From Candidatus Moraniibacteriota bacterium (GTDB taxonomy: Bacteria > Patescibacteriota > Minisyncoccia > Moranbacterales > UBA1568): a stretch of DNA of 64,000 bases. How positions within the stretch are numbered: the first letter of the stretch is position 1; each line of letters starts with the position of its first letter. Both the position numbers and the translations under genes were made by a program. Where the stretch lies: positions 12,108 to 76,107 of the forward strand of contig JAUSGT010000002.1 of assembly GCA_030648835.1 (NCBI GenBank), written 5' to 3'. The notes beneath the pieces were generated by a model. The model was not told the DNA's origin and did no database searches. It saw only the letters and a program-made list of their open reading frames with translations. Shown in pieces: positions 16,874 to 50,537 of this stretch.

Positions 16874-17626
16874 CTATTCAAGATTGTCCCACACCCGCTG
16901 GACGTCGGGATGATCGTTTATCTGCTCGAAGAAAGCATCGTACTGCTCGCGGGCTTTGGCGTCGAGGGCGACGGTCTGGATGGGACGATAGGAAAGCCCG
17001 GCAGATTTGACAGCGTAACCTTTTTCTTCCAGGACATCTTTCACTTTCTTCAGATTTTCGAAAGGGACGTAGAGGGCCAGGATATTTTCTTCGATATCTT
17101 CCGTATCTTCTGCCCCAGCATCGATAGCATCGAGTTCTGCGGTATCGCGGTCTTTTCCTGAATGATCGATGATGATTTCTCCGACTTGCTTGAAAAGGAA
17201 AGCTACCGAACCGATGGCGCCTATTTTCCCATTGGCTTTGGTGAAGAGGGATTTGATTTCGCTCACGGTGCGGTTGCGATTGTCGGTCGTGGTCTGGATG
17301 AGCATGGCGACATTGTCCGGCCCACCCGCCTTCGCAAGGCTACGGACGGGCAAGTACCCTTCGTAGAGAATGTCCTCGATAGTGGCACCATCCTTCAGTT
17401 CCCCGGTGCCGCGCTTGATGGCGCGATCGATATTGTCCTTGGGCATGTTGACGGTTCGCGCCTGGTCGATGGCGAGCCGGAGAGCGAAGTTCGTATCGGG
17501 ATTGCCCCCGCCGTGTTGTGCAGCCACGATAATATTGCGGCCGTATTTGGTGAATACGGCAGCGCGTTTGGCGTCATTAACGTCTTTTTGTCGATGAGTA
17601 GTAGCCCAATGAGAGTGTCCTGACAT
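16874..17626 (-). CDS. yebC: YebC/PmpR family DNA-binding regulator
   Basis: MSGHSHWATTHRQKDVNDAKRAAVFTKYGRNIIVAAQHGG is a near-consensus YebC N-terminus. 250 aa. Confidence 0.9.
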   Translation of the reverse strand: MSGHSHWATTHRQKDVNDAKRAAVFTKYGRNIIVAAQHGGGNPDTNFALRLAIDQARTVNMPKDNIDRAIKRGTGELKDGATIEDILYEGYLPVRSLAKAGGPDNVAMLIQTTTDNRNRTVSEIKSLFTKANGKIGAIGSVAFLFKQVGEIIIDHSGKDRDTAELDAIDAGAEDTEDIEENILALYVPFENLKKVKDVLEEKGYAVKSAGLSYRPIQTVALDAKAREQYDAFFEQINDHPDVQRVWDNLE

Positions 17627-17911
17627 ACTTGAAGAGGAATAGCGAATTTACCCTGTGTAATTGCTCACCATGTGAGCACCCGCGAAGCGGGATTACACTG
17701 GGTGAAGAATATAGAATAAAAAAAGCATGAAACTGAAGAAAATAGAGTATAGCGAATTTTGAAAAAGAAGCAAGCCCCGCACTAACTTTGCTTAATTTCT
17801 CTTAAATAAATACTAAGGATTACACACTCTCTTAATAACAGATAACATAAAGAACAAAAATAGTTTCTGATTGCGAAGCAAAGTTAGTGCGGGGCAAGAT
17901 TGGCCCGACGT

Positions 17912-18490
17912 TTAGATTTTCCGGTCATTGGCATCAATCGGGCATGCTTCCCGGTTTGCTAAATCACGGGAGAGCTGCATAATCGAGTCTTTGACTCGGT
18001 AGGGATCCGGAATTTGCCGAAAGACGAAGCGTTCTTTTTCTCCGGCCGTCTGTACGAAGACGTCGCCGAAGTTGAGTATAGTCGGTATGACGCCCTCGAC
18101 TGTCGTCGTGACGTCTTGGATGCGGGAAAAATCCAGCTCGCTGATTTCCCGTACGAACAACCCCTTCTGTTCGATATTGACGATACGTTCGTTGGTGATG
18201 ACCCAGACATCGAAATAGTAGTCGACCCAGAGGAGGAAACTGAAGAGCCACATAAAGATGAGGAAGGTGTTTTCAGCGAAAGCGAAAAAGCGTTCATTGG
18301 CCGCGTTGATTATTTCCGGAAAAAGGAGCGGAAGGAAGAAGAGACTTCCCAAGAGAAAAAGGGTGAATATGAAGATGATGAGAAAGTGGACCAGTATGTT
18401 GAACCAGTGCCGATGGATGACAGAAAGAATCTCTTCTTTGTCACGCTGTCCCTGAAAATGATAACGGGTGAATTTGTTTTGGTGCGGCAT
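17912..18490 (-). CDS. Membrane protein with bacterial PH (bPH_2/YdbT-like) domain
   Basis: Two N-terminal TM helices followed by a roughly 80-aa bPH-like domain (VWVITNERIVNIEQKGLFVREISELDFSRIQDV). Confidence 0.55.
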   Translation of the reverse strand: MPHQNKFTRYHFQGQRDKEEILSVIHRHWFNILVHFLIIFIFTLFLLGSLFFLPLLFPEIINAANERFFAFAENTFLIFMWLFSFLLWVDYYFDVWVITNERIVNIEQKGLFVREISELDFSRIQDVTTTVEGVIPTILNFGDVFVQTAGEKERFVFRQIPDPYRVKDSIMQLSRDLANREACPIDANDRKI

Positions 18491-18754
18491 ACCCAGCAGT
18501 GAAACTTCGATAACTTTTCTTTGATAGTTATAGAAGATCCGAGTTAATAGTATATTTTTGGTTTACGTTTGATATGTAGAGTCTTTGGGGTCTAATCGAA
18601 GTTTTCCTGCTGGGCATACCCAGTGGAACAACTTCAAATAATTAGAAACGAATAAGCTTTCAAATCACACTGCATATTTTTGTATAATATTTTTTATGAG
18701 AGAGTATACTTTTTTACTTTTGAAGTTGTGCCACTGGGCATACCCAGCTATTTA

Positions 18755-18979
18755 TTACAGATGAGAAAGGAGCGCGTCGAAAGGGAGGGAGAAAAAAAGG
18801 ATGGCGTTGGTGAAGATAAGAATGAAAAAGACGACCAAGAAAAGCGTCGCGCCGAAAAGGGCCGTGTCGCGCTTGAGGGAATAGCGGAAGATGTGGAACA
18901 CAATGAAGAGCGCCACGATGACGTAACTGAAAAAAAGAAGGGTGTAGATGAGTCCGAAAATTGATTGTGCACTCGGCAT
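18755..18979 (-). CDS. Small hydrophobic protein (2 TM), hypothetical
   Basis: 74 aa with two clear TM segments. An antisense ORF of similar size exists, so support is weak. Confidence 0.3.
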   Translation of the reverse strand: MPSAQSIFGLIYTLLFFSYVIVALFIVFHIFRYSLKRDTALFGATLFLVVFFILIFTNAILFFSLPFDALLSHL

Positions 18980-19009: not shown

Positions 19010-19759
19010 TTACTTGCCGAATAGTTTTGTTACCCAGCCAAAAAAGTTGAAGGACTCTTCATTGTTATTAAGTGTCTCTTGAACTTTATCTTGTTGCTGT
19101 TGTATGGTCATAATTTGTTTCTTTAGAGCTTCTTTGAGGTCGCTATCCGATGTCTCATTCAAGAGACTGTCCAGTGTTTTGAGCTTACTTGTATTATTTG
19201 TTAATGTGTTTTTTAGAGTAGTTGTATCTGCATCGTTGGTACCCATCAAAAAGTTTCTTACTTTACTGTTGTTGATGTTATCAATAAGTACTTCTTGAGC
19301 GGCAACATCGGTTGCAATCTGCTTTTTAGCAGCTTTTATGTAGCCTCTCTCTTCAGTCGTTTTTTCATTTTCAGTTTTTATTTCGACATACGCGCTGTCT
19401 TTTGGGGGATCTTTCTCGGCTGTGTTTCTGATAGCGGGAGCTGTAGTTTTCGTAGCCGGAGCAGTCTTTGGCGCAGTCTCTGTGGTTGGCTTCTCTGCAG
19501 CTATTTTACCAGCCTCTTTGGCCTTTTTACAAAGTTTTTTTACCTCATCGCTCTGTGCAACTTTTCCAGGTTCACACGCATTCAAACATTTATTGATGTC
19601 ATGCTTCGGCCAACCTGGGGTACAGTATTTTTTTAGAGCCCGGTATCTCTCGTATTGCTTCACATAAGAACCTCCTATAGGAGCGGCGACTGAGGCATAA
19701 GACAAGCTGTAGTAAGAAAAAGCCCCAAGTAAAGCAAGAGAAAATGCCATTATTTTCAT
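19010..19759 (-). CDS. Secreted low-complexity/coiled-coil protein, hypothetical
   Basis: Signal peptide MKIMAFSLALLGAFSYYSLSYASVAA. K/T/A-rich central region. A C-terminal predicted coiled coil rich in N/T/L/Q. Confidence 0.5.
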   Translation of the reverse strand: MKIMAFSLALLGAFSYYSLSYASVAAPIGGSYVKQYERYRALKKYCTPGWPKHDINKCLNACEPGKVAQSDEVKKLCKKAKEAGKIAAEKPTTETAPKTAPATKTTAPAIRNTAEKDPPKDSAYVEIKTENEKTTEERGYIKAAKKQIATDVAAQEVLIDNINNSKVRNFLMGTNDADTTTLKNTLTNNTSKLKTLDSLLNETSDSDLKEALKKQIMTIQQQQDKVQETLNNNEESFNFFGWVTKLFGK

Positions 19760-19849: not shown

Positions 19850-20866
19850 TTACAGTAATTTATCTTGATGGTCAGCCGGCATATGGATGTCGAGATGTTT
19901 GTAGCCTTCGGGAGTGACGACGCGACCGCGCGGAGTGCGCGCAAGAAATCCCAGTTGGATGAGATACGGTTCGTAGACGTCCTCGATGGTCTGAATCTCT
20001 TCTCCGGTTACGGCGGCGATGGCCTGGATGCCGGCTGGGCCACCTTTGAATTTATGAATAACCGTGGAGAGTATATGACGGTCAGTCGGCTCGAGACCGA
20101 GATGATCGATTTCGTAGAGCTCGAGGGCTTCTTTGGCGATTTCCCCGGTAATGGTGGGCCAGTTTTTCGTTTGGGCATAGTCACGCACGCGTTTCAAGAT
20201 GCGGTTGGCGACACGCGGTGTTTGCCGGCTGGATGCCGCAATTTTTTTGGCGCCTTTTTCGTCGAGACCGATATTCAGAATACCGGAAGAACGCTTTACG
20301 ATTCGCTCGATTTCTTCCGGCGTGTAAAATTCGAGGCGGTGGGTGGATCCGAAACGGTTACGGAGAGGATTGGAGAGCGAGCCGAGACGGGTAGTGGCGC
20401 CGATCAGGGTGAAGCGGGGGAGGTCGAGTTGAATAGTGCGGGCGGCCGGACCTTTGCCGATGATGATGTCGAGCTTGTAATCTTCCATGGCTGGGTAGAG
20501 GACTTCCTCAATCATTTTATTCAGGCGGTGGATTTCGTCGATGAACAAGACGTCGCCATCATCGAGATTGGTCAAGATGGAACCGAGATCGCCGACTTTT
20601 TCGATGGCCGGACCGGAAGTGATCTTGATACTGACGCCCATTTCTTTGGCGATGATGTGGGCGAGCGTCGTTTTCCCCAGGCCTGCCGGGCCGTAGAGGA
20701 GGATGTGATCAATAGACTCCTCGCGTTTTTTTGCCGCTTGAATAAAAATATCCAGATTGCGTTTGATTTTTTCTTGACCGACATACTCCGAAAAACGCTG
20801 CGGGCGGAGCGTATTATCGAAACTTTTTTCATCAATAACAGTTGGGTCGGAGGCAATTACCATCAT
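19850..20866 (-). CDS. ruvB: Holliday junction branch migration helicase RuvB
   Basis: Walker [19 protein letters not shown], an AAA+ domain, and the RuvB C-terminal winged helix. 338 aa. Confidence 0.95.
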
Positions 20867-20957: not shown

Positions 20958-21354
20958 GCCATTTCGCTTAACAAGACATTTTGAAGCTTTTCTAAAGACT
21001 GTTTCATCTGTAGACAATTGGGGATCACTATCTTTTGTCCTCAATCGCGGAACTGTTGTCCAGATTTGGGTAGGGTGGTTTCGACTGCGCTATTCCTCGA
21101 CACTTTTCCTTTTCTCGAACTCCTATGCTCGAGAGTTGTCTACAGGTTAAACAGCCTTTGCCTTGTGAAATATCTGACAAATTAATCTTGAATGTGAACA
21201 TATCTATTACCAAACGGAGTGAGTGTAACGAAAGTTTACTTTCGTTTCCGAACGCAGTGCCGGTAAAATCGGTTCTAATACCCGTTATTATTGAAAGAAC
21301 ATCAAAGAAGATTCATATTTGGCAGATTTTTCACGAGGTTTACTTCAGCGGAAT

Positions 21355-42774: not shown

Positions 42775-43677
42775 ATGGCCACTCTCTACAATGAGCATGA
42801 CAAGAATATTCGATTGACGTGGGTGTACATCACGCTTTTTTTGGTATTTGTCATCGGGGTGGGGTATGTGTTCGCGGGAGCGATGCAGTCGAGCGCGATT
42901 CTCTATGTGGCGGTGATTTTTTCCGTGGTGACGAGTTTCGTATCGTATTGGTGGAGCGACAAAATCGTCCTTTCGATGAGCGGCGCGAAGCTGGTGAATT
43001 TTGAAGACAACAAAGAGCTGTACCGTGTCATAGAAAACCTCGCCATTACCGCGGGATTGCCGACACCAAAAATTTATACGATCGAAGATACCGCGCTCAA
43101 CGCCTTTGCTACGGGGCGTGATCCACAGCATGGCGTGATCTGCTTCACCACCGGCATTTTGCAGACGCTTGATCGCACAGAACTGGAAGGGGTGGCGGCA
43201 CACGAACTTTCGCATATCGGCAATCGCGACACGCTCCTCTCGACGGTGGTGGTGATTTTGGTCGGATTCGTGGCGCTTCTGGCGGACTGGTTCCGCCACT
43301 GGGCCTGGTTCGGAGGCAATCGGGATAGCGACAACAAGAATCAATTGCAGGTGATTTTGATGATTGTGGCGCTCATCCTTTCTATTTTGGCACCCATCGC
43401 CGCGTTGCTTATGCAGCTGGCCATCTCTCGCAAGCGCGAATTCTTGGCTGACGCGTCGGGAGCGCTTCTGACACGCTATCCGGAAGGGCTCGCTAATGCG
43501 CTCCAAAAAATTTCCGCCGACACCGAACCGCTGGAAGCCGCCAATCGCGCTACGGCGTCGCTCTATATCGCCAACCCGTTCAAGGGGAAAAAAGTCGCCA
43601 AACTGTTTATGACTCACCCGCCGATTGAAGAGAGAATAGCGGCGCTCCGAGGAATGGAGGTAAAGGAAAATACCTAA
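42775..43677 (+). CDS. htpX: M48-family zinc metalloprotease HtpX
   Basis: HEXXH in GVAAHELSHIGNRD. Four TM segments. 300 aa. Confidence 0.85.
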   Translation: MATLYNEHDKNIRLTWVYITLFLVFVIGVGYVFAGAMQSSAILYVAVIFSVVTSFVSYWWSDKIVLSMSGAKLVNFEDNKELYRVIENLAITAGLPTPKIYTIEDTALNAFATGRDPQHGVICFTTGILQTLDRTELEGVAAHELSHIGNRDTLLSTVVVILVGFVALLADWFRHWAWFGGNRDSDNKNQLQVILMIVALILSILAPIAALLMQLAISRKREFLADASGALLTRYPEGLANALQKISADTEPLEAANRATASLYIANPFKGKKVAKLFMTHPPIEERIAALRGMEVKENT

Positions 43678-43753
43678 TTACTAATTCCTAATTTCTAATA
43701 AAATTTAGAGATGAGGATTTTTATTAGGTATTAGATATTAGGCATTAGAAATT

Positions 43754-49773: not shown

Positions 49774-49787
49774 AGTACCATAATAAT

Positions 49788-50537
49788 ATGCAAACTGTTT
49801 TACATCGAGCCAATGAGCGAGGATATGCGAAGCATGGCTGGCTCACTACCCATCACTCTTTTAGTTTTGCTAATTATTACAATCCCGAGATGATGGGTTT
49901 TGGCGCGCTCAGGGTGTTGAATGACGACACGATCGCGGCGGGGCAAGGGTTCGGCCGGCATTCTCACCAGGATATGGAGATTATTACCATCCCTCTTTCA
50001 GGGGCGCTGGCTCACGAGGACAGTCTGGGGAATAAAGCGGTGATTCAGACGGGGGAGGTGCAGGTAATGAGCGCTGGCCTTGGCGTGGAGCATGCGGAAT
50101 TCAATGCTTCACGGACGGAAGACGTGAGTTTACTCCAGATCTGGATTCTGACGCGGCACGTGGGGGTTGCTCCGCGTTATGCTCAGAAATTTTTTGATCA
50201 AACTGTTTTTAAAAATAAACTTTCTCTTGTCGTTGGTCCGGAAGAAAGTGAAAAAGATGGGGCGCTTTTCATCCATCAAGACGCTTTTCTTTCTTTGGGA
50301 TGTTTTGATACTGACGCAACTATAGAATATGGCCTCCAAAGTTGGGGGAATGGCGTCTATTTTTTTGTTATTGATGGTGAAGTGGCAGTGGCGGATACAG
50401 TCTTGGGGAAAAGAGATGCTCTGGGAGTGTGGGACACCGAAAAAGTCTTATTACAAGCCAAAAGTAGCGCTTTTATTCTCGCCATTGAGGTTCCCATGAT
50501 GGAGCTTTTTGAGAAAGGCGGTATACTAAATTTGTAA
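49788..50537 (+). CDS. Pirin family protein
   Basis: Cupin metal-binding His residues in FSFANYYNPEMMGFGALRVLNDD...GFGRHSHQDMEIITIPLSG. Confidence 0.85.
   Translation: MQTVLHRANERGYAKHGWLTTHHSFSFANYYNPEMMGFGALRVLNDDTIAAGQGFGRHSHQDMEIITIPLSGALAHEDSLGNKAVIQTGEVQVMSAGLGVEHAEFNASRTEDVSLLQIWILTRHVGVAPRYAQKFFDQTVFKNKLSLVVGPEESEKDGALFIHQDAFLSLGCFDTDATIEYGLQSWGNGVYFFVIDGEVAVADTVLGKRDALGVWDTEKVLLQAKSSAFILAIEVPMMELFEKGGILNL

Follow-up and report, generated by a model that had tools for sequence, protein, structure and literature searches.

We analyzed a 64,000-nt stretch of DNA from a Candidatus Moraniibacteriota bacterium (referred to here, at its full length, as the window) and found that the 264-nt spacer between mem74, a small membrane protein gene, and the gene for a bPH_2-domain protein (bPH) very probably represents two insertions, in tandem, of a non-autonomous mobile element that is bounded by inverted repeats, or MITE (for miniature inverted-repeat transposable element). 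The spacer is made up of two foldback elements, units A and B, that are inserted at the bPH start codon, have terminal inverted repeats, and are bordered by 4-bp duplications. The same kind of element is present in multiple copies at start codons elsewhere and has moved between relatives.

Two foldback units between mem74 and bPH

An original prediction, made from the letters of the window, pointed to an 11-mer, GGCATACCCAG, occurring three times, once across a start codon. Exact copies are present at 18486-18496, 18613-18623 and 18737-18747, and the first does overlap the start of bPH (open reading frame, ORF, 17912-18490 on the minus strand; ATG at 18488-18490). With up to one mismatch, the window contains five matches compared to 0.43 expected, and five were reached in 0/100 shuffles. 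The 27-bp inverted repeat described in the same prediction also exists, with its first arm at 18612-18638, but the second arm is at 18719-18745 rather than 18718-18744, the mismatches number three rather than two, and the arms are separated by 80 nt rather than 79 nt. In minus-sense RNA, two of these mismatches could form G-U pairs, and a repeat search extended the arms to 30 nt (18609-18638 and 18719-18748, 90% complementary). A second inverted repeat of the same design, which the prediction missed, has 26-nt arms (18486-18511 and 18595-18620, 85% complementary) around an 83-nt loop. Together the arms amount to four copies of one half-site, GAAGTT-N6-CTGGG (h1 to h4, Table 1), for which six window matches were found with up to one mismatch compared to 1.0 expected, a number reached in 0/100 shuffles.

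Each unit has terminal inverted repeats of ~20 bp (CCCAG-N6-AACTTC ... GAAGTT-N6-CTGGG). Read in the gene sense, the order is mem74 stop - TAAATAG - CTGGG - TATG - unit B (120 bp) - TATG - unit A (123 bp) - TATG - CCGCAC..., where the last segment is bPH coding sequence. Since TATG is central in all three 11-mers and is repeated directly rather than inverted, it represents a target-site duplication and not a pure palindrome; the 11-mer consists of these 4 bp and the constant ends of the elements, namely CTGGG and, on the opposite side, CC(CAG). The right end of unit A, AAAGAAAAGTTATCGAAGTTTCACTGCTGGG, is shared with an element in locus L150, and the arm type of unit B (GTGGAAC / GTGCCAC) also is found in L084, L086, L091, L101, L108 and L140.

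The layout of the repeats could also be read as transcription-factor operator palindromes ~125 bp apart (~12 helical turns), with DNA looping around a promoter in the spacer. A central 38-bp near-palindrome and a promoter-like TTCAAA-18-TATAAT sequence at 18659-18688 on the plus strand would be in line with such operators. However, the half-sites pair best inside a unit (h1 with h2, h3 with h4) and not across the central palindrome, and the promoter-like site faces away from bPH, into mem74 antisense, and is not conserved in relatives. Three such promoter-like sites were found, against 4.0 expected in shuffles. Given also the family members with target-site duplications described below, we regard operators as highly improbable. 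Equally hard to credit is a tandem duplication of the bPH initiation region by slippage or unequal recombination, although the three 11-mers are evenly spaced (127 and 124 nt), contain the start codon, and the 5´ coding sequence of bPH matches an arm at 62% over 26 nt, 11 of which are the shared motif. Beyond the 11-mer, the units resemble neither the bPH nor the mem74 coding sequence, the interiors of the two units differ, the same arms are present next to unrelated genes elsewhere, and the truly duplicated target is only 4 bp. The original prediction had raised iterated initiation-region duplication as one origin; it was right that the start codon is copied, as this happens with each target duplication, but the mechanism does not hold, the repeat being 4 bp of TATG plus constant element termini.

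Empty and filled sites in relatives

The gene order RuvB-mem74-bPH(-YebC) is kept across 80 related genome loci. In the 62 related loci where both genes could be placed, the median distance from the mem74 stop to the bPH ATG is 8.5 nt, compared to 264 nt here, and the spacer is therefore an insertion. The 11-mer, the palindrome and the half-site were not found in any of the 80 related bPH loci searched, ruling out a conserved regulatory site. Relatives thus do not have ordinary intergenic sequence at this position; they lack the sequence altogether. When the junction is rebuilt from what lies left of the outer TATG and right of the inner TATG, the result, TAATAAATAGCTGGGTATGCCGCACC, resembles the empty junction of relative L025, TAAATAAATATCTCCTATGCCGACACC.

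Besides the bPH junction, two filled/empty comparisons are available, both for pairs of sites that involve the window organism. Locus L154 carries a family member with TATG on both sides at the start of a pirin-like gene, whereas the orthologous window site at 49787 is empty and reads ...AATAATATGCAAACT...; to either side of this element, L154 and the window share ~82% DNA identity. In L087, an element is located between rplC and rplD. The L4 protein of this locus clusters at ≥90% identity with that of the window genome, whose own contig L210 reads TAA-TATG-GCC at rplD, with no element. In L150, a locus where the RuvB C-terminus is 93% identical to the window RuvB, the start codon of mem74 carries an element from the subfamily of unit A.

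An element family in metagenomes

We scanned metagenomes with a pattern consisting of the arm ends only (CCCAG-N6-AACTTC, 75-100 nt, GAAGTT-N6-CTGGG) and obtained at least 120 stretches, corresponding to at least 97 unique copies after duplicate removal; all family counts given from here on are among the matches listed. Few chance matches are expected for this pattern, which is an estimate, the size of the collection not being known, and the arm pair was found far above chance. The pattern fixes 22 arm positions, such that arm conservation at these positions is built in; the results for duplication, start codons and orientation rest on sequence outside or between the fixed positions. The 97 unique copies are 113-134 bp long. 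Perfect 4-bp direct repeats flank 71/97 copies, with 0 in an offset control, and TATG/CATA accounts for 54 of the 71. The other 4-bp repeats include CTTG, TAAA, GATA, TGCG, TCAT, TTGA, TTTA, CAGG, GATG, TATC and TATA, and several further copies have 3-bp ATG/CAT flanking repeats. No flanking repeat of 5 bp or more was present in the family members listed, ruling out an 11-bp target duplication.

The element interiors are highly variable between subfamilies, but within subfamilies they are 94-100% identical at sites with different flanks, pointing to recent movement. An adjacent element terminus was seen by eye in the flanks of L085, L110 and L190, and a strict automated flank check returned two cases. 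Tandem arrangements like that in the window thus recur, as would be expected if a duplicated TATG is itself a target. Named cluster mates assign the hosts to Moranbacteria, the 'Parcubacteria group' and Vebleniibacteriota. The family is widespread in Parcubacteria-group bacteria of the candidate phyla radiation (CPR) and apparently undescribed. Of the origins that the original prediction had considered, a MITE-like insertion is the one that was borne out, by the absence from orthologous loci, the terminal inverted repeats with 4-bp target-site duplications, and the occurrence of the unique copies at unrelated genes.

The duplicated flanks also bear on the type of transposase. Elements of the single-strand HUH (Y1) class, namely REPIN/RAYT or palindrome-associated derivatives of IS200/IS605, would be an alternative: the size and shape, with two inverted sequences of ~20-25 nt set ~80 nt apart, resemble REPINs, and the covarying arms with retained complementarity and the specific tetranucleotide target found here would fit as well. 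HUH elements, however, insert beside a fixed target tetranucleotide without duplicating it, and each of their repeats forms a hairpin by itself. The 4-mer here is duplicated on both sides and varied between copies (CTTG, TAAA, GATA, TGCG and others), individual arms are not palindromic, and both 3-bp and 4-bp duplications occur, as staggered cuts predict. We consider an REP/REPIN (RAYT) or IS200/IS605 origin very unlikely compared to a DDE-type MITE.

We considered solo ends, as well as arms paired at a distance of 300-3500 bp, as candidates for an autonomous partner; these proved to be individual MITEs with a host gene between them, such as the response regulator in L149, or a large palindrome in L200. 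No arm pair in the fetched loci enclosed an ORF of transposase size. A search of viral contigs with the 17-mer left arm gave eight matches, none with a partner arm or a TATG flank; these are therefore chance matches and serve as a negative control.

TATG start codons as insertion sites

What follows the element could be determined for 48 TATG copies, and 43 of these have a gene-side ATG that begins an ORF of ≥60 codons. Using crude ORF calls, we counted TATG in the window 40 times at start codons, 54 times at other non-coding positions and 373 times in coding sequence. The observed start-codon share of 90% compares to ~43% expected if all coding insertions were lost (p = 1.3e-11). In the target logo, TATG is the sole strong feature, accompanied by mild enrichment of G at -3 to -1 and of C at +4 and +5. 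Target genes include rpmI, rnpA, dnaB, ksgA, rplD (S10 operon), atpA and ligA. Pfam matches indicated a true N-terminus (profile position 1-4 at residue 2-6) for L35, RNase P protein, DnaB, KsgA and 2-hydroxyacid dehydrogenase. Full-length housekeeping proteins likewise are encoded by the remaining downstream ORFs scanned (L4, ATP synthase alpha, NAD-dependent DNA ligase, trigger factor and transketolase); here the first profile match begins further in. In 19 of the 34 copies that could be assessed, a co-directional ORF ends ≤60 nt upstream, placing these elements inside operons.

The window genes have T at position -1 of the start codon in 38/57 cases (crude gene calls), making UAUG the usual context, and Shine-Dalgarno-like motifs are rare (6/61 genes, crude calls). 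Judged from these sequences, the family appears to insert overwhelmingly at TATG start codons and to regenerate them, and TATG is the start context preferred by the host as well. Several window genes also have TATACT or TATAAT 6-10 nt upstream of the ATG, which suggests leaderless mRNAs. Separately, the bPH ATG in relatives often follows a CT-rich tract (CCTCTTTATG, CTCCTATG).

Stem, orientation and predicted RNA folding

Comparison of 67 distinct arm pairs gave a stem of 20 bp, in which three positions immediately interior to AACTTC (arm positions 18-20) covary, with GC/CG/AU at one position and UA/CG/GC/AU at another, where 1/67 is unpaired. The covariation score for the arms is 0.183 compared to 0.091 in shuffles and was reached in 0/500 shuffles. 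The main subfamily has a fixed 3-nt internal mismatch (TAATAC vs TATATC) and a single orientation relative to the gene (36 vs 0), whereas smaller subfamilies, among them the ones to which units A and B belong, are found in both orientations. The gene-proximal right arm of the main subfamily reads TGATATACT-GGGT-ATG, an extended -10-like motif facing the gene, which makes an outward promoter plausible for this subfamily; the 4 nt between the motif and the ATG are shorter than canonical. We rejected an outward promoter for the window units, as the right arms of A and B have no -10-like motif.

Folding of the minus-sense spacer RNA is predicted to give two long stems, with a minimum free energy of -74.9 kcal/mol (z = -5.9). 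In the second of these stems, the bPH AUG would be part of the 3´ strand, with UAUG paired to UAUG through G-U wobbles. The effect of the insertion on bPH expression may therefore be exerted by an RNA hairpin sequestering the AUG.

A hairpin of this kind might have evolved in place as a cis-regulatory RNA, in the manner of the ermC or trp leaders, with a 1:2 / 3:4 versus 2:3 attenuator coupling bPH translation to mem74 or to short ORFs starting at the duplicated AUGs. An attenuator is compatible with the topology of four segments complementary to one another, the bPH AUG being in segment 4, with the stability of the fold, and with short ORFs that begin at the duplicated ATGs (MPSGTTSKVKKYTLS and MPSRKTSIRPQ...). 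Yet the sequence is absent from 62/62 orthologous junctions, the loops of 80-83 nt are unconserved, and the element is found at dozens of unrelated genes with target-site duplications. The short ORFs also vary in length and stop position. ORFs in the elements span 3-47 codons and are unconserved except for MPS(N/G/T/S)TTS, which is imposed by the inverted repeat; those starting at the upstream duplicated ATG have only MPSxTTS in common and end at variable places. The elements are in frame 0 to the gene in 14/71 copies, nearly all with stop codons. With no in-frame excess and variable ORF ends, neither in-frame read-through, as for Rickettsia palindromic elements (RPEs), nor a conserved leader peptide was retained. 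Searches of Rfam 15 with the spacer elements gave no match at the gathering level and, at E up to 1, only miRNA-precursor-like hairpins scoring 20-31 bits against cut-offs of 89-230, that is, generic hairpins far under threshold. We therefore consider an attenuator evolved in place very improbable, and the regulatory hairpin put forward in the original prediction is not supported as an account of the origin of the sequence.

A model for insertion and start-codon regeneration

In the MITE model, a DDE-type transposase acting in trans would make a 4-bp staggered cut at TATG, the base before the ATG plus the ATG itself. Repair would duplicate TATG and leave an intact ATG ahead of the bPH coding sequence, after which a related second element would enter one of the TATG copies to give TATG-B-TATG-A-TATG. 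Such insertions, even in essential genes and operons, probably are tolerated because the start codon is regenerated. A read-through mem74-bPH transcript would fold into two long hairpins, and in the second of these the bPH AUG would be paired to the duplicated AUG region upstream. Translation of bPH then would need opening of the stem by ribosomes, processing of the stem, or an internal promoter.

Several observations weigh against this interpretation. The start-codon excess may stem from selection after insertion rather than from targeting. No transposase or autonomous element with matching inverted repeats was found in the ~1.4 Mb of fetched loci. The CTGGG left of the outermost TATG is not accounted for by a 4-bp duplication, and it represents either ancestral target context or what is left of a third copy since lost. 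Comparison of the A and B interiors showed no significant similarity (z < 1, global alignment vs shuffles); the two units are either old or from different subfamilies. Finally, only two family copies are present in the 64-kb window plus 12 kb of L210. We do not claim interior homology among units A, B and C (unit C is described below), for which z also was < 1 vs shuffles, and MAFFT alignments of the units were uninformative.

More tentatively, the family might constitute a kind of CPR mobile element that has gone undescribed and for which start codons are safe harbors. Such an element would integrate at the UAUG context preferred by the host, rebuild the start codon by the 4-bp duplication, and keep the gene expressed. 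This might be achieved by a candidate outward promoter, TGnTATACT, in the main subfamily's right arm and/or by opening of the 20-bp stem, shunting across it or cleavage (RNase III being one example), any of which would expose the AUG. If true, this would explain how essential genes and operon interiors of minimal genomes come to be colonized, and the elements would be natural modular regulators of translation initiation in hosts largely without Shine-Dalgarno sequences.

Comparison with known elements

The units have the features of MITEs: inverted arms of 26 and 30 nt (85-90%), TATG at both units, small size without coding capacity, multiple copies, and presence/absence differences. By analogy, the closest known counterpart appears to be the Correia element (CREE/NEMIS) of Neisseria. 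Correia elements are foldback MITEs of ~100-155 bp with ~26-bp inverted repeats, mostly immediately upstream of genes and co-transcribed with them, whose mRNA hairpins are cleaved by RNase III and some subtypes of which have outward promoters (PMC2649163, PMC10969869). The family described here is similar in size and inverted-repeat length, and its main subfamily has the -10-like motif; RNase III cleavage and promoters are Correia features that here are at most predicted from sequence. In contrast to the TA duplicated by Correia elements, the duplication here is 4 bp and mostly TATG, and the arms (CCCAG-N6-AACTTC) have no sequence similarity. Correia elements are not reported on start codons, where most TATG copies of the present family lie, and the hosts are CPR bacteria rather than Neisseria.

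Other small palindromic elements are less similar. ERIC/IRU, RUP and YPAL are imperfectly palindromic, non-coding elements of ~107-170 bp, mostly in transcribed intergenic regions, that can alter mRNA stability (PMC3184786, PMC10969869). They differ in sequence and target, none is reported to regenerate start codons, and ERIC-type elements usually are at 3´ ends or between genes, whereas this family is on the ATG. RPEs likewise are listed among small palindromic mobile elements (PMC10969869). They are in frame within coding sequence and translated, whereas the elements here are outside the ORF. Like the present elements at essential genes, RPEs persist in or against essential genes of reduced genomes while the gene stays functional. 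IS10 and IS50 show fold-back inhibition, in which a read-through transcript pairs the outer end with the transposase start region. The parallel is that pairing of the start region with an inverted copy upstream takes place only if the transcript enters from outside, as predicted for the bPH AUG; the difference is that a transposase gene is protected in IS10/IS50, whereas here the start of a host gene is predicted to be sequestered. Integron attC sites, whose core sites R''/R' are RYYYAAC ... GTTRRRY, were rejected, as the termini are CCCAG...CTGGG with no GTTRRRY core at the ends. An IS1380-like origin (CC... ends, 4-5-bp duplications) is a possible lead.

Start codons and CPR bacteria are both absent from a 2024 review on MITEs in prokaryotes (PMC10969869). 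In the literature on CPR/Patescibacteria MITEs and on start-codon or TATG targets, we found no description of such elements. To our knowledge, a MITE falling almost exclusively on start codons, including those of essential genes, has not been described before. Streamlined CPR genomes host an active repeat family that provides a natural experiment on translation starts in organisms with few Shine-Dalgarno sites and a marker for strain-level insertion differences. The elements also matter for annotation, as they inflate intergenic spacers, create spurious MPSxTTS ORFs and can mislead gene callers, as for mem74 below.

Neighboring genes and other structured sequences

The genes around the motif are all on the minus strand (Table 1). 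The 824 bPH homologues found include a 100% match named Candidatus Moranbacteria. mem74 is conserved at up to 75% identity, in every case between RuvB and bPH. No tRNA or transfer-messenger RNA gene was found near the spacer.

Table 1. Features of the mem74-bPH region and related sites in the window
Feature	Coordinates	Strand	Comment
YebC gene	16874-17626	minus	
Unit C, 120-bp foldback	17775-17894	minus	Sister family; starts 16 nt after bPH stop
bPH_2-domain membrane protein, 192 aa	17912-18490	minus	PF03703, E = 9.5e-10; ORF intact downstream of insertion
Target-site duplication copy 1, TATG	18488-18491	minus	CATA on plus strand; contains functional bPH ATG
Unit A, 123-bp MITE-like foldback	18492-18614	minus	Arms 18492-18511 and 18595-18614; AT-rich interior
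Half-site h1	18492-18508	minus	
Half-site h2	18598-18614	plus	
Target-site duplication copy 2, TATG	18615-18618	minus	Between units
Unit B, 120-bp MITE-like foldback	18619-18738	minus	Sister subfamily; arms 18619-18638 and 18719-18738; 80-nt AT-rich interior
Half-site h3	18619-18635	minus	
Half-site h4	18722-18738	plus	
Target-site duplication copy 3, TATG	18739-18742	minus	At ancestral bPH start position relative to mem74 stop
CTGGG	18743-18747	minus	Just outside outermost duplication; resembles inverted-repeat terminus
mem74, 74-aa two-helix membrane protein	18755-18979	minus	Upstream of insertion; conserved in relatives
249-aa ORF	19010-19759	minus	Between RuvB and mem74
RuvB gene	19850-20866	minus	
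Empty target site, TATG	49787-49790	plus	Start codon of pirin-like gene (49788-50537); orthologous L154 site filled

The public gene call on the matching Logan contig (SRR13727527; L001 4258-4542) is a 94-aa, highly charged ORF on the plus strand (18680-18964) that starts within unit B and is antisense to mem74. Because mem74 is conserved in relatives, we take the minus-strand gene, and not the antisense ORF, to be real. The 249-aa ORF has a hydrophobic N-terminus, low-complexity sequence and no Pfam match. It is without a counterpart in 80/80 related loci, where mem74 directly follows RuvB, and is a second lineage-specific insertion in the RuvB-mem74-bPH operon.

Unit C has perfectly complementary arms, CCCCGCACTAACTTTGCTT / AAGCAAAGTTAGTGCGGGG, or 20/20 pairs counting the flanking G and C at 17774 and 17895, around an AT-rich loop of 82 nt; the flanking repeats are CTTG/CTTG (minus strand), and folding of the RNA scores z = -4.6. 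With unit C after the bPH stop and units A and B before the start, bPH is bracketed by three such elements. A near-identical arm is present in L031 (96-224), with CAAA/CAAA flanks, and the unit C arm pair had 0 matches in viral contigs. Foldbacks with CCC...GGG ends also are found in other CPR loci (L024:938-1060, L047:2455-2539, L150:4361-4496, L104:4656-4779, two copies in L162, and L163:9114-9249), with flanking repeats of 4-5 bp (CAAA, CTTG, ATGAA, TTCCA). Unit C appears to belong to these sister families of CCC...GGG-ended foldbacks.

We also detected a conserved structured element of ~165 nt (20994-21159, minus strand) between a GspE-like ATPase gene and RuvB, which occupies the same position upstream of RuvB in ≥23 related loci. 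The helix that closes it is CTGTAGACAA...TTGTCTACAG, compensatory changes are found in 14 of the 26 predicted pairs, and G-U pairs favor the RuvB-sense strand. Long blocks, GTGTCGAGG, CGAAACC, GATTGAGGACAAAAGATAG and CCCCAAT, are invariant. There was no Rfam match at E up to 1, and the element is possibly an undescribed non-coding RNA or leader. A further inverted repeat at 43669-43753 has 35-nt arms, 77% complementary, around a 15-nt loop, and consists of AT-rich TAATT/CTAAT-like short repeats.

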